From an uncultured Candidatus Saccharibacteria bacterium (GTDB taxonomy: Bacteria > Patescibacteriota > Minisyncoccia > Phycocordibacterales > Phycocordibacteraceae): a DNA stretch of 64,000 bases. The stretch covers positions 284,337-348,336 of the forward strand of contig CAZZAT010000001.1 of assembly GCA_964652615.1 (NCBI GenBank). Reading direction: 5' to 3'. The stretch's first letter is position 1. Every line of letters begins with the position of its first letter. Shown here piece after piece: positions 1,687 through 37,953 of this stretch. A program made the translations under genes and the position numbers. Below the pieces are notes generated by a model. It was not told where the DNA came from and ran no database searches. It saw only the letters and a program-made list of their open reading frames with translations.

Positions 1687-2595
1687 CTAGGCAGGGCGCT
1701 TCGAATGGAACTTTTTATGCACTTCCCGCAGATGCGCATCGGTAACGTGCGTATAAATCTGGGTGGTATTTATCGAAGCATGTCCGAGAAGGGCTTGTAC
1801 GCTTCGAATGTCAGCGCCGTTTCCTAAAAGGTCGGTTGCAAAGCTATGGCGAAGGATATGAGGCGTCACTTTCTTTGTAATGCCCGCCTTTGCGGCGTAC
1901 TTCTTCATGATGTTTTGGACGGAGCGAGCGGTAAGGCGCCGTGCCACTTTCTTCGAAGCCTTTTCGTCTGCAAGTACATTCACAAAAAGCGCCTCTTCCA
2001 TATCTTTGCGGCCTTTAAGGTATGCGCGTACCGCCTCTTTGGCAGAAGGGGAGAGGAAGACAACACGCACCTTATCCCCCTTACCACGCACTGAAAATTC
2101 ATCGCGTGAAAGATCGAGGTCGCAGTTCAGGGAGCAAAGCTCGGAAACGCGAAGGCCCGTAGAAAACAAAAGCTCAAGAATGGCGCGGTCTCGAAGCGCT
2201 CTTTGAGAAGTTCCTTTCGTAGAACCGATGAGTCGTTCAAGCTCTGTAGCTGAAATGAGGTCGAGGGAGCGCTCGGGAAGCTTTGCAAGCTCTATGCGCT
2301 CTGGAGAAATACAGGGTATTTCGCGCTTACGCAGAAACTTCAAAAAAGCTCGAAGTGCGATGAGGTAGTAATTCTGGGTGCGGCGCTTCATGGCGCCTTC
2401 AGTTCCTTTCTGACGATTCAGCCAGAGTCTGAATTCGCGTATCTTCTCTTCGGTTATGTCGCTCGTGTCTTTTATTTTTGCCCATTCAAAGAAACGGGAA
2501 AGGTAGTGGTCGTAGTTTTCGACCGTCTTTACGGCACGCCCGCGCTCGATTTCTATGTATTCGAGGAACTGACGTTTCATTGAAGAGGCATCCAT
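1687..2595 (-). CDS. xerC: Tyrosine site-specific recombinase, XerC/XerD family
   Basis: N-terminal SAM-like domain; C-terminal catalytic region ...HILRHSFATDLL...GHASINTTQIYTHV (R..HxxR..Y). Confidence 0.85.
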   Translation of the reverse strand: MDASSMKRQFLEYIEIERGRAVKTVENYDHYLSRFFEWAKIKDTSDITEEKIREFRLWLNRQKGTEGAMKRRTQNYYLIALRAFLKFLRKREIPCISPERIELAKLPERSLDLISATELERLIGSTKGTSQRALRDRAILELLFSTGLRVSELCSLNCDLDLSRDEFSVRGKGDKVRVVFLSPSAKEAVRAYLKGRKDMEEALFVNVLADEKASKKVARRLTARSVQNIMKKYAAKAGITKKVTPHILRHSFATDLLGNGADIRSVQALLGHASINTTQIYTHVTDAHLREVHKKFHSKRPA

Positions 2596-3622: not shown

Positions 3623-4948
3623 ATGGCCGATACACCGGTAGTATCAGAACAAAAAGACGAAACGAACGTTTCGCACATGCGCACCTATGCAAGCGATGTT
3701 GCAAAGCTTACGGGCAAGCCGCTTCCAAGGAACGTGAAGAACGTGCCGGCTCCAGCGCCTCCTCCAAAAGAACCTGAACCTGCAAAAATAATCCCAAAAG
3801 CTCCGACAACAAACGAGTCGAGAGAAGAAGTGTTGAAGCGCCTCAAAGAGAAGAGTGTTGTACGGGGGGCGCCAAAGCCAGAGACACCTGCGTATGAACC
3901 GTATCCCAAGGCACCAACAACTTCAGAATCTCGGGAAGAGGTGTTGAAACGCCTAAAGAAGAAGGCGGGTGTTTCTCCTGCACCTCCCCCAGAAGCACCT
4001 CAGCCGCCCCCACCGCCGCTTCCCACCGTGAAAAAAGATGTTGCACTAAAAGCCCCTGAACGTGTACATACCTATAAGTCTGACTTTTCAGAGCACGCAA
4101 CCGAAAAGGGAGCGACGCGCATTAGCATGCTTGCCGCACAAGCTGACGCCGCGAACGCACCCGTCGTTCTTGCCGAAAAGAAACAGACAAATCATTTTGC
4201 CTTTGTTGTAGGCGCTGTCCTTGTGCTTGCTGGGCTTGGCGCAGTGTATGCTGCCTATCGTTTTGCGACTGGCTCGCCGCCCATTCCTGTAGAAACAGCT
4301 GTCCCTTCGCTTATTTTTGCAGATGAACGCCTGCGTATTGAGGGATCAGTAGAGACACTGCGCTCCTCGCTTGCTGCTCCAAGCGTCCTCTCTCTTGAGG
4401 CGGGTGAAGCAGCTGTCGTGTATATCTCCTATGCATCGTCGACGAAGGCGGGCATCATTGAAATAGTCGCAACTGGCGCAGAACTTATCGAAGCGCTTCG
4501 CCTTCCTGCTCCCGCAGTTCTCTTGCGTTCGATACAACCACAGAGCACTGTTGGTGTCCTAAACGAGGGCGGGGAAATGCGGCCGTTCTTTATCTTCAGC
4601 GTCGACTCCTATGAACGCTCGTTTGCCGGCATGCTCGAATGGGAAGCAACGCTTGAGCGCGATCTTTCTCTGTTTTATCCACCACACCCTGAACCTCCGC
4701 TAGAAGAGGTGGACATGAGCATCTCAACCACAACCGCATCCTCGACGCCATCTCCTGCGCCTATGCCGTTCCGGCTTTCGTTTGTTGATGCGGTGATTGG
4801 AAATCGTGACGTGCGTATCTTAAAAGACCAAGAAGAACGTACCGTATTTCTCTATGGATACCGCGATAAGGAAACGCTCGTTATCGCAAGAAATGAGGCA
4901 AGCTTTATTGAACTCCTTGAGCGCCTCTCCTCTGCAGGGAGGAGATAG
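3623..4948 (+). CDS. Proline-rich single-pass membrane protein with a tandem 20-aa repeat
   Basis: Repeat KAPTT(N/S)ESREEVLKRLK(E/K)K occurs twice; PPPxP tracts; one TM helix FAFVVGAVLVLAGLGAVYAAY. Confidence 0.5.
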   Translation: MADTPVVSEQKDETNVSHMRTYASDVAKLTGKPLPRNVKNVPAPAPPPKEPEPAKIIPKAPTTNESREEVLKRLKEKSVVRGAPKPETPAYEPYPKAPTTSESREEVLKRLKKKAGVSPAPPPEAPQPPPPPLPTVKKDVALKAPERVHTYKSDFSEHATEKGATRISMLAAQADAANAPVVLAEKKQTNHFAFVVGAVLVLAGLGAVYAAYRFATGSPPIPVETAVPSLIFADERLRIEGSVETLRSSLAAPSVLSLEAGEAAVVYISYASSTKAGIIEIVATGAELIEALRLPAPAVLLRSIQPQSTVGVLNEGGEMRPFFIFSVDSYERSFAGMLEWEATLERDLSLFYPPHPEPPLEEVDMSISTTTASSTPSPAPMPFRLSFVDAVIGNRDVRILKDQEERTVFLYGYRDKETLVIARNEASFIELLERLSSAGRR

Positions 4949-4970
4949 GGTACGTGATACACTCTTACGC

Positions 4971-5324
4971 ATGATTGACACTACGGTATACAAAACAAGG
5001 CTTGAGGAAGAGAAAGCAAAGCTTGAAGGAGAACTTTCAAGTGTTGGTAGGCGCAACCCTTCAAACCCAGATGATTGGGAAGCAGTGCCGCAAGGCACAG
5101 GACAAGAACCTGACCCCAATGATGCTGCAGATCTCATCGAGGACTTTGAAGCAAACACTGCTATCTTGAAAGAGCTCGAGACTCGATACAATGAAGTGCT
5201 TGCGGCACTTACCCGCATTGAAAACGGTACATATGGTGTGTGCGGCGTATCGGGAGAAGCGATTGAGGAAGATCGCTTAAACGCAGACCCTGCAGCACGT
5301 ACCTGCAAAGCGCATATTAGCTAA
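4971..5324 (+). CDS. DksA/TraR-family protein with a degenerate C4 zinc finger
   Basis: Coiled-coil N-terminus; C-terminus ENGTYGVCGVSGEAIEEDRLNADPAARTCKAH resembles the DksA finger region with only two Cys. Start set at the internal ATG 4971 because the upstream ORF extends to 4948. Confidence 0.55.
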   Translation: MIDTTVYKTRLEEEKAKLEGELSSVGRRNPSNPDDWEAVPQGTGQEPDPNDAADLIEDFEANTAILKELETRYNEVLAALTRIENGTYGVCGVSGEAIEEDRLNADPAARTCKAHIS

Positions 5325-6312: not shown

Positions 6313-7428
6313 TTAGTTTGCGAGCGGATTCTTTGCACCGCGTACTTCAAAGTGGAGGTGGTATCCGGTAGAGCGACCAGTGTTTCCAACGCCACCAAGC
6401 TTCTCGCCCTTTGAGAGAGACTCGCCTACAGAAACTGAAACTGAAGAAAGGTGCGCGTAGAGGGTCTGCGTACCATTATCGTGCGTGAGTACGACATAGT
6501 TTCCGTAACCACCATTCTCTCTTCCGTCACCTTTCGCTACGATGACTGTACCCGCAGCCGCAGCAAACACGGGCGTACCTTCTGCAATACCAGCAAGGTC
6601 AACACCATTCCAACCGTGAATACCTTGGGAGCGATACGAGCCAGGTACTGGATTACCGAAGTAGCCTGAAAGTTCTGGGGTCACCTTAGTCGTAGCTGGT
6701 GAGCCTGACGAAGCGATTTTTGCAGCAGGCTTCTTTGCAGGAATAAGGTTGCCGCCTGGAATGATGAGTTCTGTACCTGCGGCAAGCGACTCGCTTTCGC
6801 TAATACCGTTGAAGAGTGCTATTTCTTCAACATCAGCATCAAACAGCTTCGCAACATCAGAGAGAGTACCGCCGCTTTTAATGGTATAGCGTACGCCAGA
6901 AACAGGAAGGATGAGGAGCTCATCTCCTGGCTGAATAGTCTTTGCGTCCTTCACATCGTTTGCCCAGAGAATGGTGTTTACTGAGACTTCGAACATGTCT
7001 GCAATTTCTGAAAGGGAATCGCCCTCGCGCACCGTATAGAGGGTAATCTCACCGCCACCCCCGCCGCCCACCGAAGCTGAAGAAAGAGCGCCAACAGGAC
7101 CGCCAGAGGGAATGAGGGCAGAGCCGCCCGTTGTTGCGATAGCAAGCGTACCTTTAGAAGGGTTTGGGTCTGGGTGAGTTGCGGGGTCAAGATACTCAAC
7201 AGAAGCATCGTGAAGAGACGGAATCTCATCAGCGGCTCGTGTCGTTAAGAATGGCCATGAAAAAGCCTCAATGCGTATAGGAAAAGCCGCAAAGACGATT
7301 GCGACTGCGAAGCCTGCGATACCAACCGCGGCTATAGTTTTGTATGCATTTCCGCTTCGCTTAGGGGCGCCAGCTCGGAAAGGATGTTTTGAGGGCAAAA
7401 TAGGGGGTTCAGGGTGTTTCAAATCCAT
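6313..7428 (-). CDS. M23-family metallopeptidase with two LysM domains
   Basis: N-terminal TM; two LysM repeats (YTVREGDSLSEIA..., YTIKSGGTLSDVA...); C-terminal M23 motifs HxxxD...GNTGRSTGYHLHFEV. Confidence 0.85.
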   Translation of the reverse strand: MDLKHPEPPILPSKHPFRAGAPKRSGNAYKTIAAVGIAGFAVAIVFAAFPIRIEAFSWPFLTTRAADEIPSLHDASVEYLDPATHPDPNPSKGTLAIATTGGSALIPSGGPVGALSSASVGGGGGGEITLYTVREGDSLSEIADMFEVSVNTILWANDVKDAKTIQPGDELLILPVSGVRYTIKSGGTLSDVAKLFDADVEEIALFNGISESESLAAGTELIIPGGNLIPAKKPAAKIASSGSPATTKVTPELSGYFGNPVPGSYRSQGIHGWNGVDLAGIAEGTPVFAAAAGTVIVAKGDGRENGGYGNYVVLTHDNGTQTLYAHLSSVSVSVGESLSKGEKLGGVGNTGRSTGYHLHFEVRGAKNPLAN

Positions 7429-32125: not shown

Positions 32126-32605
32126 CTAGGAGGTCTGGGGATAGCGAAGGGAAAGCGCGGCAATGCCGATGCCAATCGCATCGAGTTCATCGTCCAAACG
32201 CTTCTTATGAGGTAGAGCTATAAGCAACGGAATCATGCGAGCCATGGCCTTTTTATCAGCGCGTCCGTCTCCCGTAACCGCAAGTTTTATGGTTCCTGGG
32301 GGGAGTTCGCGCACTTCAAGAGTCTGTGTTCCCGCTACAGCCAGAATTGCGCCCCGTGCTTCAGCAACACCAAGCGCTGTTTTTTTGTTAGTACTGAAAA
32401 AGAGCGTTTCAAGCGCAAGAATGTCTGGAGCGTAGGTGGTAATCGCTTTGGATACCGCCAAAGAAACCGCAGCAAGGCGTTCTTCCTTGTCTCCTTTTGG
32501 CGGCTGTATGCAGTCGCTCCACACAAGCACAGGCTTTGAAGGAGAGCCTTCAAGCACCGCAACACCCATGCGGTCAAAGCCAGGATCAATCGCCAGTATT
32601 CTCAT
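32126..32605 (-). CDS. ruvC: Holliday junction resolvase RuvC
   Basis: MRILAIDPGFDRMGVAVL... with catalytic Asp/Glu; start at the internal ATG 32605. Confidence 0.8.
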   Translation of the reverse strand: MRILAIDPGFDRMGVAVLEGSPSKPVLVWSDCIQPPKGDKEERLAAVSLAVSKAITTYAPDILALETLFFSTNKKTALGVAEARGAILAVAGTQTLEVRELPPGTIKLAVTGDGRADKKAMARMIPLLIALPHKKRLDDELDAIGIGIAALSLRYPQTS

Positions 32606-33143
32606 AGCCGTCAGCGTTTGTGAATACTTCCTGCGTATCGTCATAGTCATCAAGAAGGGTAAGTATTTCACGAAGCTTCTCCTCGTCTTCTCCTACAATC
32701 TGCATCTTCGGATCATTGGGTTCGTACCTCCCTTCAGGAGACTTAGTAAATGCCCACGAGGCACTTCCTGGTGTACCAAGCTCGTATCCATTTTTAGAGA
32801 GCAGATGTTTTATTTCCTGCGTCGTCCTATTCCTGCTATCAGTCACTGCAACGACGATAACAGCGCTTGCGCCAGGGCCGAAGAATTCATACGCAACTTG
32901 TTCAAGTGCTCCAGAGTCTTTGGAAGTACCTTTCGCTACTGCTCGCTCGATACTATCTTTAGGCATATTTGCTGCCTTGGCGCGCGTAATTGCTGCTGCA
33001 AGGGAAGGGGAAGAGGTGTCTCCGGCAACCTTCTTACTTTCAAGAGCTATTTCACGAGCAAATTTAGTAAAGGCTCGACTCTTTGCTGCATCAGTTACCG
33101 CTTTTGCGCGCTTTATTTGGGCCCACTTACTGTGTCCTGCCAT
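32586..33143 (-). CDS. YebC/PmpR-family protein (short, 185 aa)
   Basis: MAGHSKWAQIKRAK... signature N-terminus; conserved yebC-ruvC adjacency. Confidence 0.75.
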   Translation of the reverse strand: MAGHSKWAQIKRAKAVTDAAKSRAFTKFAREIALESKKVAGDTSSPSLAAAITRAKAANMPKDSIERAVAKGTSKDSGALEQVAYEFFGPGASAVIVVAVTDSRNRTTQEIKHLLSKNGYELGTPGSASWAFTKSPEGRYEPNDPKMQIVGEDEEKLREILTLLDDYDDTQEVFTNADGYENTGD

Positions 33144-33245
33144 GAGAGGAACTATAGCAAAAGGTTCGAATCCTAGGATGCCAACTAACTTTTGTGTGCA
33201 AAGAGAAAAGCCTACGCCCTTGCGGGTTTCGGCTCTCTGGAACTG

Positions 33246-33461
33246 TTATTTGTGCTTGAGCTTCGCTTTCACCTCTTCCTTGAAGCGCTCACGGTCTTCC
33301 GCCGGTACGGCGGCAACGTCCGCAGCGAAATCAAGATAGGTGAAGAGGTTGCCTCGCACCATAGATTCAACTTGGCTGTTGCCAACCAGGCTGGCTCGAT
33401 AGAGGTCGAGCGTATGGTCAACGAAGCTCGCGGCAGCTCGCACTTGATCTTCCGTATACAT
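33246..33461 (-). CDS. Hypothetical small cytoplasmic protein (cassette-array gene A)
   Basis: 71 aa; GGAG RBS 8 nt upstream; consensus promoter TTGACA-17-TAATAT upstream. Confidence 0.45.
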   Translation of the reverse strand: MYTEDQVRAAASFVDHTLDLYRASLVGNSQVESMVRGNLFTYLDFAADVAAVPAEDRERFKEEVKAKLKHK

Positions 33462-33487
33462 GACACGTCTCCTGCAGTCCTGGATTA

Positions 33488-33516
33488 ATATTAAGACACG
33501 GTAAACGCTATGTCAA
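33488..33516 (-). promoter_or_regulatory. Sigma-70-like promoter (TTGACA, 17-nt spacer, TAATAT) for gene A
   Basis: Read on the minus strand: TTGACAtagcgtttaccgtgtctTAATAT, directly downstream of repeat copy 1. Confidence 0.55.
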
Positions 33517-33522
33517 TAGCGC

Positions 33523-33551
33523 GGTTCCAACATCGTCCCAGGATGCCAGCA
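33523..33551 (+). repeat. 29-bp conserved element, copy 1 (GGTTCCAACATCGTCCCAGGATGCCAGCA)
   Basis: Manual alignment of the seven copies; followed by hairpin cgacccgc...gcgggtcg. Confidence 0.7.
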
Positions 33552-33607
33552 ACAAAACGACCCGCCGTTCCCTTGCGGTACTTAGCGGGTCGCTCATGCG
33601 TGTTGTC

Positions 33608-33967
33608 TTAGTTCATGGCGTAGTATGCCTTGGTCGCTTCGAAGTACTCATCGGACCAGCGCGGATCGAGGATGAAGACTCCTGTGATCCGCTGCGTGGT
33701 CCGCGTCGCCACGAGCTGTGCCAGGAATCGAGACTCCTGGTCCGTGTTGTCGATGCGGCGGATTTGTCCGTCGGTCGTCGTATAGATGACGCCACCGCAC
33801 TCGTCGATCCGAACCGAGCAACGCATAGCCCATTGCTCGACTTCGTACTCCGTTGCGATGACCGGCCTGAGCCCGTTATCCTGGGCAGCAGGCCGCGTCG
33901 GGTCCGATCCGCATGATGCGAGCGCGAGAAGCGCAGACACCAGAACAAGACTTTTCACATGCAGCAT
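33608..33967 (-). CDS. Putative lipoprotein (cassette-array gene B)
   Basis: Signal peptide with lipobox LALASC; AGGGAG RBS; start at the internal ATG 33967. Confidence 0.5.
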   Translation of the reverse strand: MLHVKSLVLVSALLALASCGSDPTRPAAQDNGLRPVIATEYEVEQWAMRCSVRIDECGGVIYTTTDGQIRRIDNTDQESRFLAQLVATRTTQRITGVFILDPRWSDEYFEATKAYYAMN

Positions 33968-34080
33968 GTGTATCTCCCTTTGCTGATGGGTGGTTGCCCA
34001 CGTGAACGGGTTTCCTAATAAATTATACACAAATATAGATATATGTCAATAACCTAGGTACACAGGCTCTTTTTCTAAAA

Positions 34081-34109
34081 AGTTCCAACAGCGTCCCAGA
34101 CAGCCAGCA
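34081..34109 (+). repeat. 29-bp conserved element, copy 2 (AGTTCCAACAGCGTCCCAGACAGCCAGCA)
   Basis: Followed by hairpin aaaccgcccgac...gtcgggcgggttt plus TTTATT. Confidence 0.7.
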
Positions 34110-34164
34110 TAAAAGAAACCGCCCGACCCAAGGAGCCGAGAGGTTCCTTTTGAGTCGGGCGGGT

Positions 34165-34398
34165 TTATTGCAATTGTGCTTGAACGCGGTCGCAGGGCAC
34201 TTCGACGACAACGTATGAGGCGTTGGCGTGAGCTGTGCCAGGAGCCGTCGTGACGCCGAAGCAGAGTCCGTTGCGAGTATCCTGAACGTAATTCAGGCTA
34301 TCGACAATAGCTTGTGCTCGGGTGTCGCTCGGGCTGCTGGGTTGGCCGCAGCTAGCGACCAAAACGGCCAAGCAGGCTGCAAAAACGAGCTTACGCAT
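34165..34398 (-). CDS. Putative small lipoprotein (cassette-array gene C)
   Basis: 77 aa; lipobox LVASC; GGGAG RBS. Confidence 0.5.
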   Translation of the reverse strand: MRKLVFAACLAVLVASCGQPSSPSDTRAQAIVDSLNYVQDTRNGLCFGVTTAPGTAHANASYVVVEVPCDRVQAQLQ

Positions 34399-34462
34399 GT
34401 CTTTCTCCCAAGGTTCAACTCAAAGTATATGCTACATAGTAACGCTACTTTGTCAATAGCAT

Positions 34463-34491
34463 GGTTCCAACAGCGTCCCAGACAGCCAGCA
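34463..34491 (+). repeat. 29-bp conserved element, copy 3 (GGTTCCAACAGCGTCCCAGACAGCCAGCA)
   Basis: Preceded by tgtcaatagc (reverse complement gives a TTGACA -35 for gene C); followed by hairpin taatctc...gaggatta. Confidence 0.7.
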
Positions 34492-34794
34492 TGGCTTAAA
34501 ACCTAATCTCCACAGACATGAGGATTAGTACTATCGAACTACTTGCATATTTTTAATACCTCGCTATTCTTATCTTTGGAAAGTCTGAAACTCTCTGCTG
34601 GTGACGAACTGGTCTATCAAGCCGCCAGAACGACAGAGAGGAAATGGGAATTGCAGCCCTAACCTATAGCTAAGGTGCCAAATGGGAACCGCGAGGTTCC
34701 AACCGACGCTTAGGGGAGTGCCCCACAACCGTGATCAGCGAGTTAGGGGAGCGCACACGATCCGATAGGATTTTCCGCTCTTTCAACCAATAGC

Positions 34795-34823
34795 CACCCC
34801 ATGCGCGGGGTGGCTAACTTTTT
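34795..34823 (+). terminator. Hairpin plus T5 tract ending a ~290-bp non-coding stretch
   Basis: gccacc-atgcgcgg-ggtggc followed by taacTTTTT. Confidence 0.4.
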
Positions 34824-34830
34824 GCATAAA

Positions 34831-34859
34831 AGTTCTAACTTCGTCCCATTCCCTCAGCA
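34831..34859 (+). repeat. 29-bp element, degenerate copy 4 (AGTTCTAACTTCGTCCCATTCCCTCAGCA)
   Basis: About 20 of 29 positions match the consensus; lies just upstream of the DUF1653 gene. Confidence 0.45.
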
Positions 34860-34879
34860 ATTTGTTAGAATTATTTACA

Positions 34880-35160
34880 TGGAATATAAGAAACTTGATA
34901 CGTCCGTAATCCGCAATCGTATCTATGAGCATTACCGAGGCAATCGCTATGTCGTCGTTGATATTGCAAAGAATGCTGATCTCGACGGAGATGAGTTTCT
35001 GGTCATCTATCGCGCGCTTTATGATCACGGGCAGTTGTACTCAACAGCGCTAGAGCGGTTCACAGGACTCAATAGTGAAGGCACTCCTCGTTTCCGCCTG
35101 GTCGACATCGAAGAGGGGAACCGAAACCCTAATCACGTCTATCCAACGATTACGATGTAG
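34880..35160 (+). CDS. DUF1653-like small protein (cassette-array gene D)
   Basis: IYEHYRGNRYVVVDIAKNADLDGDEFLVIYRALYD...PRFRLV resembles the DUF1653 pattern (hYKG..Y.V...A.HSET.E.LVVY..LY). Confidence 0.55.
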
Positions 35161-35170
35161 TTTGGACAAA

Positions 35171-35199
35171 AGTTCCATAATCGTCCCAGACGGCCAGCA
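35171..35199 (+). repeat. 29-bp conserved element, copy 5 (AGTTCCATAATCGTCCCAGACGGCCAGCA)
   Basis: Followed by hairpin atgcccgg-aatgt-ccgggcat, which also serves as the terminator of minus-strand gene E. Confidence 0.65.
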
Positions 35200-35238
35200 T
35201 CGGCAAAAGAAAATGCCCGGAATGTCCGGGCATTAGTC

Positions 35239-35463
35239 TTAGTCTGTGGCACTCCTGAGTTCAAGGAACCTCTTGGCTTGAGAATACCCACAATCGTAGT
35301 GCTCGTTGCCTTTAAGTTCAAAGTTAGGCTCACGACCATTGTCAGCGTCCTCAGCTCCCATTTGTCGTAGGCGTGCTGGGCTCACTTCAACACCTCTCAT
35401 GTGGTCAAAGACGCCAGTGCAGTTTGTGGGCCTGTCCCACCGACCGGTCTCATGGTTGTACAT
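35239..35463 (-). CDS. Hypothetical small protein (cassette-array gene E)
   Basis: 74 aa; GAGGAG RBS. Confidence 0.45.
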   Translation of the reverse strand: MYNHETGRWDRPTNCTGVFDHMRGVEVSPARLRQMGAEDADNGREPNFELKGNEHYDCGYSQAKRFLELRSATD

Positions 35464-35503
35464 GATGTATCTCCTCTGAAATCAAGAGTACCAGACCTAG
35501 ACT

Positions 35504-35530
35504 GGTTCCAATAGCGTCCCAGACAGCCAG
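35504..35530 (+). repeat. 29-bp conserved element, copy 6 (GGTTCCAATAGCGTCCCAGACAGCCAG, 3' end truncated)
   Basis: Ends 18 bp before the NUDIX gene start; no hairpin follows. Confidence 0.65.
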
Positions 35531-35548
35531 AAACGGTATACTGTTCGC

Positions 35549-36046
35549 ATGAGTGAATATCCAGATAAGCTTGTTTCTTGCAGGACTCTCGATGGAGAGC
35601 TTAAGCAGGTGCGCGTTGGAGACCTTACATTCAGGCCTTCGATATACGGCGTGGCGATAAAAGATAACAAAGTTCTCCTTGTCCCATGTAAGGACGGATA
35701 TGATTTTCCTGGAGGTGGGATCCATGAAGGCGAACCAATGCTTGAATCTCTCGTTCGAGAAGTAAAAGAAGAAAGTGGTATTGAAGTAGAGGTGGGAGAT
35801 ATTCTCTACGCAAAAGACGATTTCTTTATTCATCCACGAAGCCAAAAGGCCTTTCACACCACACTAATGTATTACACGGTAACCCCAGTAGGAGGAGAAC
35901 TTTCCAGCGCGGGACTTACTGAGTTCGAGAAGACTCTTGCTAAAGACCGCCTTCCGGAATGGGTAGACATATCAAAGATTGATAATCTCAAGTTCTACAA
36001 TCCTATAGACAGTCCAGCTCTAGTTCGCAAGGCCTCAAGACACTAA
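35549..36046 (+). CDS. NUDIX hydrolase (cassette-array gene F)
   Basis: Nudix box GGGIHEGEPMLESLVREVKEESGIEV (Gx5Ex7REUxEExGU). Confidence 0.75.
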   Translation: MSEYPDKLVSCRTLDGELKQVRVGDLTFRPSIYGVAIKDNKVLLVPCKDGYDFPGGGIHEGEPMLESLVREVKEESGIEVEVGDILYAKDDFFIHPRSQKAFHTTLMYYTVTPVGGELSSAGLTEFEKTLAKDRLPEWVDISKIDNLKFYNPIDSPALVRKASRH

Positions 36047-36054
36047 GCGAGGGC

Positions 36055-36083
36055 GGTTCCAACTACGTCCCAGACAGCCAGCA
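36055..36083 (+). repeat. 29-bp conserved element, copy 7 (GGTTCCAACTACGTCCCAGACAGCCAGCA)
   Basis: Followed by bidirectional terminator aggcgaggac-taaaa-gtcctcgcct TTCGTTT. Confidence 0.7.
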
Positions 36084-36090
36084 ACATAAA

Positions 36091-36122
36091 AGGCGAGGAC
36101 TAAAAGTCCTCGCCTTTCGTTT
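36091..36122. terminator. Bidirectional rho-independent terminator
   Basis: 10-bp GC-rich stem with T tracts on both strands; between convergent genes F and G. Confidence 0.6.
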
Positions 36123-36360
36123 AACGACGGGTACCGATGAATTCATCAGACAGACGCTTCAGACGCTTACGCGCCCGACGACGACTCCACTTCTTGAACG
36201 TCGAAAGCTTAACATTCAAGGCTTGGCAGCAATGACACCCGTAGGTGTGCTTGCCGTGGCGTGCGCCGCCAGGGTTAGTATCCATCTTCTGCATCTGCCG
36301 AAACACATCAGCCATGAGACTCTCCTTAGGTGAGGTTAGGCTCTCATACTGACTCTCCAT
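36121..36360 (-). CDS. Hypothetical small basic protein (cassette-array gene G)
   Basis: 79 aa; C-terminus very basic (KKWSRRRARKRLKR); CHCC cluster. Confidence 0.35.
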   Translation of the reverse strand: MESQYESLTSPKESLMADVFRQMQKMDTNPGGARHGKHTYGCHCCQALNVKLSTFKKWSRRRARKRLKRLSDEFIGTRR

Positions 36361-36658
36361 GGTTATTTCTGGACAGACCCTACCACATATGTTGGAAATA
36401 CTTCAACAGCACTTTAGGTGTGGTACAGTCGAGCATATGGGTGGATATATTTTCTTAATGGTTCTCATAATGCTCGGCATCGTCGGGCTTCTCGGTCTTG
36501 TCTTTTTGCTTACCAAACCAAAGAAAGGAACGGGAGATCAAACGAAACACACAGTACGCATCTTTTTGTGGCTACCCCTCATTGCCGCAGGACTCTGTCT
36601 CTTGGTGATTATTGGTATAGCTGTGTACACGGTCATGACGGGACCGTACAGTCTCTAA
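36359..36658 (+). CDS. Small two-TM membrane protein (start uncertain, possibly 36437)
   Basis: Two hydrophobic helices (IFLMVLIMLGIVGLLGLVFLL; LWLPLIAAGLCLLVIIGIAVY). Confidence 0.35.
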   Translation: MVISGQTLPHMLEILQQHFRCGTVEHMGGYIFLMVLIMLGIVGLLGLVFLLTKPKKGTGDQTKHTVRIFLWLPLIAAGLCLLVIIGIAVYTVMTGPYSL

Positions 36659-36660
36659 AA

Positions 36661-37662
36661 CTACTGGGCCAAGTATCCACGCCCCTTTTGCGTGAGCAGG
36701 CGTCCGCGAGGTCCTCTCTCGATAAACCCAAGACGAAGGAGATATGGTTCATACACGTTTTCAAGCGTATCTGGGTCTTCATGTAGGGAAGAGGCGAGTG
36801 CGCGGATACCGGCAGGTCCTCCGCGAAATCCTTCCAGAAGCGTTTCAAGATAGCGGCGGTCGTCTTTAGTGAGTCCGAGCGCATCAATGCCAAACAAGTC
36901 GCACGCCTCATCACACACGTCTATCGTAATAGGCACATCGTGCACTTGTGCGTAGTCGCGCACTCTCTTCAAGAGAGCATTTGCAACGCGCGGCGTTGCA
37001 CGGCTGCGCGATGCGAGTGTTCGAACCACATCCTTTTCGATTTCAAGACCAAGAAGTCCTGCAGAGCGTGCAATGATGCTGTGCACATCATCATCGCTAT
37101 AGAAGTCGAGCTGGTAGACGCCACCGCCAAAGCGAGAGCGAAGCGGTCCTGAAATCTGCGCAACGCGCGTCGTAGCGCCTACGAGTGTGAAGCGAGGGAG
37201 TGCAAGCTCTACCGTGCGTGCTGAAGGACCTTTGCCAAGTACGATATCAAGCGATCCATTTTCAAGAGCGGGATACAGCAACTCTTCTATTTTCGTACCA
37301 AGCCGATGTATTTCGTCTATAAACAGCACCGACCCCTCTTCAAGATTAGTGAGTATTGCGGCAAGGTCTGCGGCGCGCTCGATAGCGACTCCTGACGTGC
37401 TTTTAAGCGGTGCGCCAAGCGTCTTTGCTACAAGATGTGCGAGCGTTGTCTTACCCACTCCCGGAGGTCCATAGAAAAGGAAGTGTTCTGGCATGCTGCT
37501 TCGCTTTTTTGCTGCATCAAGCGCGATACGCACATTCGCTTTTACATGTCCTTGGCCCACATACTCATCCCAGAGCGAGGGGCGTAGCGCCGAGTCGAGT
37601 CCCTGATCGCCTTTAAGGGAAGGAGTGTCGTTTTTCGCAGAAGCCTTAGGAGGGGTTGACAT
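36661..37662 (-). CDS. ruvB: Holliday junction branch-migration helicase RuvB
   Basis: LDEYVGQ..., Walker A GPPGVGKTTLA, Walker B LFIDEIHRL, sensor TTR; start at the internal ATG 37662 (the longer 406-aa ORF adds a non-conserved N-terminus). Confidence 0.9.
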   Translation of the reverse strand: MSTPPKASAKNDTPSLKGDQGLDSALRPSLWDEYVGQGHVKANVRIALDAAKKRSSMPEHFLFYGPPGVGKTTLAHLVAKTLGAPLKSTSGVAIERAADLAAILTNLEEGSVLFIDEIHRLGTKIEELLYPALENGSLDIVLGKGPSARTVELALPRFTLVGATTRVAQISGPLRSRFGGGVYQLDFYSDDDVHSIIARSAGLLGLEIEKDVVRTLASRSRATPRVANALLKRVRDYAQVHDVPITIDVCDEACDLFGIDALGLTKDDRRYLETLLEGFRGGPAGIRALASSLHEDPDTLENVYEPYLLRLGFIERGPRGRLLTQKGRGYLAQ

Positions 37663-37953
37663 AAAAAGAGGGTATGCTACTCTACCAGTATACCGCAGGG
37701 GACGAGCTTCGTCTCCGGCAGTTAGGAAGGGGGAGGCCCTGCCGACGCGCTTTTTCAAAGAAGGGCGTTTTATTTTGTCCCATACATCGCGTATAGAACC
37801 CTCTAGGCAAGGCTTGACGGCTAAGGGCGACTCCCCAAGGACTTTTTGGTTCCATTCTCCGGAATGGAGCGCTGGAAACATCCTCAGGCGTGTTGTTCGG
37901 CCTGGAGGGTTCTGTACGGGAAAGAAAACACCGCGCTGTATGCGCGGTGTTTT

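Follow-up and report, generated by a model that had tools for sequence, protein, structure and literature searches.

A tRNA-Gln-related 28-bp repeat as a probable junction site of single-gene cassette arrays in Patescibacteria

In integrons, tandem and mostly single-gene modules of ~0.5 kb lie between co-oriented recombination-site repeats and carry diverse cargo whose function is mostly unassigned. Here, we describe a comparable arrangement in a 64,000-nucleotide stretch of a Candidatus Saccharibacteria genome (the window, numbered from its first letter), in which a 28-29-bp element, GTTCCAACAGCGTCCCAGACAGCCAGCA, is present in seven copies of one orientation at 33.5-36.1 kb, and in arrays of other Patescibacteria. 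As in integrons, a distinct first site marks a fixed end (attI in the integron, the 3' end of tRNA-Gln here), genes read in the same sense as the sites are packed tightly against them, and reverse-oriented cassettes carry their own promoters. Integrons, however, have intI beside the array, whereas no adjacent intI was found here, either among the Pfam-annotated neighbours in the window or by phmmer in the window and 118 loci. In addition, attC is a folded site of 57-141 bp, in contrast to the 28-bp linear, non-palindromic site here; and integron cassettes are driven by a common promoter (Pc), whereas those described here have promoters and terminators of their own, no Pc and an orientation ratio of ~60:40. 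A further difference is that one genome may hold several of these arrays, with a tRNA gene or tRNA fragment serving as the anchor of each.

tRNA-targeted elements and cis-mobilizable elements (CIMEs) offer a second parallel, since they too insert at the 3' end of a tRNA gene, are bounded by direct repeats related to the tRNA end and accumulate in tandem. CIMEs of the ICESt1/ICESt3 family reportedly arise by tandem accretion of integrase-less, att-flanked elements, and Prochlorococcus genomic islands are said to carry tRNA-end repeats. Like CIMEs, the units described here are without an integrase and would depend on one acting in trans. They differ from the known elements in being tiny (median ~550 bp, one gene), with up to eight or more in an array; no integrase-bearing parent element was seen; the internal repeats are a conserved variant with a loop 5 nt longer; and sites of this type are also found at other chromosomal positions, at pseudo-sites made of tRNA fragments.

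Xer/dif modules (IMEX and the pdif modules of Acinetobacter plasmids) are similar in that a 28-bp site bounds small recombinase-less modules reliant on a housekeeping enzyme, and a single Xer-like gene is present here. However, dif has an 11-6-11 dyad and pdif alternates in orientation, whereas all sites here are direct and have no dyad. A Xer/dif site was rejected as an identity for the element because inspection and folding of the consensus revealed no 11-6-11 inverted-arm architecture. Lastly, sites of class I/II activators such as CRP resemble the element at copies 1 and 3, where it lies directly upstream of a -35 box, but here the spacing is variable, there is no dyad, site orientation is independent of the gene and most copies have no divergent promoter. 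Our literature search, which was not exhaustive, returned no description of the element sequence or of such arrays.

We consider it probable that the element is the att-like site repeated at the junctions of a mobile array of gene cassettes, which has the tRNA-Gln 3' end as its anchor, and, with similar confidence, that the promoters beside it belong to individual cassettes and are not controlled from it. A broader proposal, which we put forward tentatively, is that a gene-capture platform akin to integrons may have evolved independently in Patescibacteria, in which the tRNA-Gln-derived 28-bp linear site would serve as attC, the tRNA-Gln end as attI, and an unlinked recombinase would move self-expressed single-gene cassettes between many species. 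Patescibacteria, or the candidate phyla radiation (CPR), have tiny genomes in which the gain and loss of accessory genes is poorly understood. Such a platform would supply accessory functions to these minimal genomes and would represent a second, structurally different answer to the problem solved by integrons. The junction site would also be an easily searched marker of a hypervariable accessory gene pool in any metagenome, and would account for the frequent assembly breaks in CPR metagenome-assembled genomes (MAGs).

Arrays, their contents and the tRNA-Gln anchor

When the window was searched with the pattern GTTCYANNNNCGTCCCA, allowing at most one mismatch, seven matches were found, all on the plus strand (33524, 34082, 34464, 34832, 35172, 35505 and 36056), against 0.07 expected in shuffled sequence. 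A profile built from ~300 copies and run on the 64 kb returned the same seven as its sole significant matches. The full plus-strand copies span 33523-33551 (copy 1), 34081-34109 (copy 2), 34463-34491 (copy 3), 34831-34859 (copy 4, with a degenerate right part, ..CCCATTCCCTCAGCA), 35171-35199 (copy 5), 35504-35532 (copy 6) and 36055-36083 (copy 7, the last full one). Copy 1, a ..CCCAGGATGCCAGCA variant, reads TGCTGGCATCCTGGGACGATGTTGGAACC and differs at four positions from copies 2 and 3; the sequence quoted for it in a first-pass annotation of this DNA is actually theirs. Each interval between successive copies holds one small gene in either orientation, with the exception of 34492-34830, which holds none. 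A minus-strand gene is bracketed by its own signals, its terminator adjoining the element on its left and its promoter adjoining the element on its right. Plus-strand genes begin immediately past one element and end within a few bases of the next.

Arrays that share this 28-bp element are widespread in Patescibacteria. A scan of one genome per species gave at least 117 stretches from ~71 assemblies, and a separate metagenome scan gave 80 more; smaller denominators used below (~305-309 copies, 190 intervals, 118 or 147 loci) are parts of the matches listed. Pooled, the two sets contain at least 538 copies in at least 198 loci, and both orientations occur in only one of these loci. The sources in the genome scan are almost all MAGs labelled Patescibacteria, Paceibacterota/Parcubacteria, Nomura-, Kaiser- or Berkelbacteria, or Saccharibacteria, some of these labels being possibly unreliable. 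Several arrays can be found in one genome, individual arrays reach eight or more units, and the spacing between copies has a median of 551 bp (interquartile range 408-728 bp, full range 180-5900 bp). The consensus, A.AAAG-GTTCCAACATCGTCCCAGAC[T/A]GCCAGCA-A, is nearly invariant over more than 70 species, with nearly all 28 core positions >90% conserved. Copies differ by 3.53 mismatches within one array vs 3.58 between genomes, giving no sign of concerted evolution within arrays. Deletion variants at two loci (L075, 1993; L076, 7167) read GGTTCC joined to AGACTGCCAGCA, without the 11 nt between two TCC repeats.

Being short, intergenic and present in many copies, the element could be a selfish repeat of the repetitive extragenic palindrome (REP), miniature inverted-repeat transposable element (MITE) or bacterial interspersed mosaic element (BIME) kind that has spread into intergenic gaps. 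Yet it is not palindromic, all copies of an array point the same way, none occurs in the remainder of the 64-kb window, and the genes between copies are non-homologous, accessory and absent at the same site in relatives, all of which makes such an origin extremely improbable. The palindrome or terminal inverted repeats and the dispersal in both orientations that mark REP and MITE sequences were not found. Also rejected was a clustered regularly interspaced short palindromic repeat (CRISPR) array, as the 180-5900-bp intervals contain genes, promoters and terminators, and no cas gene occurs among the Pfam-annotated neighbours (~26-52 kb). A phage or plasmid origin was likewise dismissed: the full 26-nt pattern has 0 matches in IMG/VR, and matches to a 20-nt sub-pattern are a coding coincidence. 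This 20-mer, GTTCCAAYNNCGTCCCAGAC, occurs in >100 viral contigs (IMG/VR, L118-L237) inside one conserved prophage gene that translates as ..VWDDVGTFDGRPWRG.., is cytosine-methylase-like and is unrelated to the element.

The contents of the arrays behave as modules. Among 190 intervals, only 9 small homology families were detected, and homologous cassettes are flanked by unrelated neighbours; for instance, locus L083 has three cassettes in common with three different arrays. When 400-bp flanks were added, homology stopped within ~6 bp of the bounding elements or at degenerate internal copies. Hydrolases of the NUDIX and HAD types, lipoproteins and ATPases are among the cargo products, along with those of many genes without known function.

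Content is hypervariable at conserved positions. In many pairs of syntenic relatives, the housekeeping flanks are shared at 65-80% nucleotide identity and the cassettes are not. At the yebC-ruvB junction, which carries seven copies plus a degenerate edge copy in the window, locus L038 is empty (a 25-38-bp gap), L070 has two copies and L115 at least one. A one-cassette difference was seen between L276, which has an element, an 877-bp cassette and a second element, and L280, which has a single element; to the left of the L280 element, the sequence matches the flank of the first L276 copy, and to the right it matches that of the second (92-95% identity). Similarly, the place taken by one full element in L013 holds six in contig CAMTWI010000004, the flanks of the two being 92-94% identical. 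Homologous cassette pairs and the L276/L280 difference place the crossover right of element position 2, with few informative differences. An indel of another kind separates L003 from L305, which are otherwise 100% identical: ~155 bp with a ~55-bp repeat, inside one cassette and away from any element.

The arrays are anchored at tRNA-Gln. Using ARAGORN on 147 loci, we found 58 tRNA genes near arrays, 34 of which are complete tRNA-Gln genes (UUG or CUG) at the upstream array edge; by coordinates, all 34 lie upstream of the elements and point in the same direction. The tRNA-Gln 3' end, GGTTCGATCCCTAGTCTCCCAGCA, is one base off the array edge sites, which match it at 23/24 positions, while internal copies align with it given a 5-nt insertion and 3-4 substitutions. 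The inserted nucleotides fall in the loop, so that the alignment reads GGTTC-CAACATCG-TCCC-AGACTGCCAGCA. Judged from this alignment, the element is best read as a derivative of the last ~24 nt of tRNA-Gln (the T arm and the 3' acceptor strand) with a loop 5 nt longer.

Array edges carry hybrid sites. Within 1.5 kb outside the arrays, the upstream side gave 40 right-half-only (tRNA-like) sites vs 6 left-half-only, whereas the downstream side gave 27 left-half-only vs 9 right-half-only; reverse-strand controls gave 2-6. The upstream edge sites all read GGTTCGAWNCCTAGTCTGCCAGCA, corresponding to the tRNA T arm and 3' acceptor strand. This pattern of half-sites suggests a crossover region around element positions 15-22, CCAGAC(T). 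A tRNA 3'-end target together with complementary hybrid edges is the classical footprint of integrase-type integration. In the window, a 3' fragment alone is present. This degenerate edge copy (copy 0, GGTTCGAATCCTAGGATGCCAACTA, 33163-33188, plus strand), read in the sequence and aligned to the tRNA-Gln 3' end and to the edge sites of other arrays, bounds the array on the left and lies 20 nt upstream of where yebC starts. It was overlooked in the first-pass annotation, and has orthologous degenerate counterparts at the same place in L070 and L115. ARAGORN called no tRNA at 33163-33188, the body of the tRNA being absent from this edge of the array.

Promoters and cassette orientation

Under the proposed mechanism, the mobile unit would consist of a single small gene, the promoter and usually the terminator that serve it, and one site copy, and cassettes would be gained and lost by recombination between co-oriented copies. 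All copies would therefore point one way, while the cargo gene could point either way; the observed cassettes number 102 plus vs 71 minus (~40% minus). For a minus-strand gene, the promoter would have to lie where the cassette meets the next element on its right, as seen at copies 1-3, and a plus-strand gene would start just past the element with an extended -10 of host type and a leaderless ATG. Expression of promoterless cassettes from an integron-type Pc was rejected, given both orientations and cassette-borne promoters.

A promoter scan of the window confirmed that the element abuts near-consensus sigma-70 promoters firing away from it, and found three, at copies 1-3, each upstream of a minus-strand open reading frame (ORF) led by a Shine-Dalgarno (SD) sequence (genes A, B and C). 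All three lie on the minus strand: that of gene A is TTGACA-17-TAATAT (33488-33516), with its -35 box 6-7 nt from copy 1; that of gene B is TTGACA-16-TATAAT (34022-34049), 31-32 nt from copy 2; and that of gene C is TTGACA-16-TAGCAT (34429-34456), 6-7 nt from copy 3. The extra spacer described earlier at copy 2 is present, measuring ~25 bp instead of 22 bp. For the plus-strand genes, a distance of 18-20 bp from element to start codon had been given; this holds for gene D (19 nt from copy 4 to the ATG at 34879) and does not for gene F (16 nt from copy 6 to the ATG at 35549).

From these positions, the first-pass annotation had chiefly read the element, at -40 to -70 of the minus-strand promoters, as bound by a class I activator or as UP-like, and as having a repressor function toward plus-strand genes, a reading we now find highly improbable. 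The equal 6-7 nt spacing at genes A and C, along with a weak mode of 7-9 nt across loci, would fit an activator. However, the promoters at copies 1 and 3 have a segment in common (GCTATTGACA..AGCGTT.AC) that produces their equal spacing, gene B departs from this spacing, and strong divergent promoters are found at only 22/307 copies, with the -35 box starting anywhere from 4 to 44 nt from the element. No fixed helical geometry is therefore apparent, either across loci or in the window. A repressor-like role fares no better: ~40% of cassettes lie each way while element orientation stays constant, and 4/7 copies in the window are followed by the terminator of a convergent gene, leaving nothing to regulate on the plus strand.

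Host genes have promoters of a different kind. They are mostly leaderless, the ATG following 6-7 nt after a -10 box that is often G/TGn-TAnnnT, and SD sequences are rare (window starts 2595, 7614, 26941, 40660, 49558 and 52166 are examples). No -35 signal was found at host genes, where the best-match score was 2.33 vs 2.39 at random positions, without a consensus. Since host promoters have no -35, plus-strand cassettes need no element to provide one, which weakens the idea that it serves them as a -35. Reading the element as a sigma-54 or extracytoplasmic function (ECF) promoter was also abandoned, as by eye the spacing misfits and copies disagree. For promoter annotation, this means that the lineage's own genes are -35-less and leaderless, and many cassette genes have canonical -35, -10 and SD sequences.

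Promoter type differs with cassette orientation. Downstream of 74/305 copies, a TAnnnT box follows at 4-8 nt, mostly preceded by TGn, and then an ATG at 6-7 nt (controls, 9/883). In the genome set, plus cassettes were leaderless in 61 cases and SD-led in 18, vs 6 and 40 for minus cassettes (Fisher p = 2e-12), and the independent metagenome set gave 40/11 for plus vs 4/33 for minus (Fisher p = 2.5e-10). The window follows this pattern, with leaderless plus cassettes with an extended -10 (D and F) and SD-led minus cassettes (A, B, C and E); across loci, many minus cassettes have a canonical -35/-10. In addition, a conserved 32-bp module, tCTAGACAGAACCTAsCATAtrTTGCAGAAAG, lies directly 5' of 31/306 copies, before unrelated minus-strand genes (e.g., in L005, L027 and L097). 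Read on the minus strand, it runs from TTGGAAC, contributed by the element, through 17-18 nt to TGc-TAGGTT. It has the appearance of a portable promoter, with its -35 (TTGGAA) inside the edge of the element. Some copies of the module have a 6-3-6 inverted repeat in the spacer, and a remnant of it is seen at 35493-35503 of the window. Gene E may have a similar promoter with an element-borne TTGGAA: by inspection only, a putative TGg-TACTCT extended -10 (35485-35493) lies 15 nt from the TTGGAA inside copy 6.

These data bear on whether the element is chiefly regulatory, i.e., an operator or promoter half for a conserved Patescibacteria factor or an alternative sigma that controls plus cassettes, the arrays being clusters of co-regulated genes. 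The narrow 4-8 nt placement of the plus extended -10, which puts the element at ~-19 to -46, is in keeping with this idea, as are the 31 copies that give a TTGGAA -35 to a conserved divergent promoter, the strong tie between promoter architecture and orientation, and the high conservation of all 28 positions. Nevertheless, ~40% of copies, including the four in the window, precede a convergent gene and its terminator and have no -10, host promoters require no -35, and the tRNA-Gln anchor, the edge half-sites and the modular limits of homology are left unaccounted for; we thus judge a primarily regulatory element to be quite improbable. Because the copies that precede the ~40% minus cassettes face a convergent gene with no -10 downstream, regulation may be a second function of the junction site and not its primary one. 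The first-pass annotation had also allowed for a structural or recombination site with merely incidental promoters: comparative evidence points to such a site, while the promoters are only partly incidental, given the 31/306 copies with a TTGGAA -35 and the correlation with orientation.

The search for a recombinase

If the element is a junction site as we propose, site-specific recombination would involve an acting enzyme, most likely a recombinase encoded elsewhere in the genome, and perhaps a circular intermediate. The search for an array-linked recombinase covered 8-kb flanks at 118 loci, 10 kb in the window and the interior of large cassettes, and found none. None emerged when 1314 flanking proteins were clustered, nor from Pfam searches of window neighbours and large cassettes, and no integrase was found inside an element next to a tRNA. 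When XerD and Hin served as phmmer queries for every ORF in the window and the 118 loci, the only matches were a housekeeping-type Xer 31 kb from the array (a single XerD-like gene at 1687-2595, minus strand) and its L012 orthologue (4195-5142, 77% identical). The latter lies immediately beside an array, perhaps merely as another insertion hotspot. The tRNA-Gln 3' end and the element provide a defined substrate pair for a recombinase search.

Several of these observations weigh against a junction site served by a dedicated enzyme. Besides the lack of linkage, the sole tyrosine recombinase seen is the distant housekeeping-like Xer. Most recombinase core sites have dyad symmetry or a hairpin, and neither was found in the element by consensus inspection and folding. 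Unlike classical attL/attR repeats, the internal copies are not identical to the tRNA end. Furthermore, exact-protein look-ups for strain-level variation returned only contigs of the same strain, broken at copy 2. Finally, a pure junction model does not account for the asymmetry of promoter types; because these differ with orientation in both sets, the element may also take part in transcription.

As to structure, the consensus folds into a 3-bp stem only. Folding of 309 copies in 40-nt windows gave means of -3.45 for the top strand and -5.53 for the bottom, vs -4.21 (sd 2.62) when shuffled, with no clear difference. An integron attC hairpin (R''-L''/L'-R') was therefore rejected, there being no structure beyond the 3-bp stem and folding like that of shuffled sequence.

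The repeats could instead be homology anchors only, with RecA-type swapping between 28-35-bp repeats (e.g., after natural transformation), repeat-mediated loss and no dedicated recombinase. The lack of an array-linked recombinase and of dyad symmetry would suit this explanation, and the L276/L280 difference can equally be read as a direct-repeat deletion. Patescibacteria are presumed to rely on taking up DNA, and the 'minimal mobile elements' of Neisseria swap cassettes by homologous recombination, a parallel that also speaks for RecA. However, RecA needs identity within a genome only, yet the consensus is near-invariant over >70 species and copies are as similar between genomes as within an array; the tRNA 3'-end anchor with complementary edge half-sites is a signature of the integrase type; and a length of 28 bp borders on the minimum for efficient RecA recombination. 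On this evidence, we consider RecA-type exchange unlikely. The near-invariant consensus, the tRNA target and the hybrid edges favour a site-specific enzyme.

Cassettes and neighbours in the window

The array of the window sits between ruvC-yebC (32126-33143, minus strand) and ruvB (36661-37881, minus strand), ~5 kb from dnaA/dnaN. Pfam-annotated neighbours are rnpA, yidC, dnaA, dnaN, a PBP gene, ruvC and yebC on one side, and ruvB, pilB, tsaE and polA on the other. In L038 (junction at 6812-6850), ruvB, yebC and ruvC are contiguous on one strand, whereas in the window the array separates ruvB from yebC. In the window, the ATG of yebC is preceded at 7 nt by a TATAGT -10 box of the gene's own, adjoining the tRNA-like edge site. 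Logan short-read contigs of the same strain (L238-L241) end or start exactly inside copy 2 (34084-34111); in these contigs, the element repeats break up the assembly of such genomes.

Most of the window cargo has no Pfam family, D and F being the exceptions. Gene A (33246-33461, minus strand) encodes 71 aa, has no Pfam family and is SD-led. Genes B (33608-33967, 119 aa) and C (34165-34398, 77 aa; terminator at 34122-34140) are likewise SD-led and on the minus strand, and their products start with lipoprotein-like signal peptides (..LLALASCGS and ..LAVLVASCGQ, respectively). Cassette D (34866-35160, plus strand) encodes a DUF1653 protein, with a TGt-TAGAAT extended -10 at 34863-34871 followed after 7 nt by its leaderless ATG. 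Cassette E (35239-35490, minus strand) encodes 74 aa, is SD-led and ends in a terminator at 35212-35234. Cassette F (35537-36046, plus strand) encodes a NUDIX hydrolase, with a TATACT -10 at 35537-35542 and 6 nt to its leaderless ATG.

To the right of copy 7, gene G (36121-36360, minus strand) and gene H (36359-36658, plus strand) fill the space up to ruvB (36121-36658 together); no closing element occurs between them and ruvB, so their status as a cassette is uncertain. An Rfam search of 33100-36700 gave no match, even at E <= 1.

The interval between copies 3 and 4 (34492-34830, plus strand) is a non-coding cassette with no credible ORF and a strong terminator at its end (34791-34816), and may be a small RNA or a decayed cassette. 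It contains a palindrome, GGAACCGCGAGGTTCC, and, near 34693, a partial element-like sequence, GGTTCCAACC. The initial ~50 nt of the interval recur in cassette leaders of L044 and L088, in the latter before an AAA ATPase gene.

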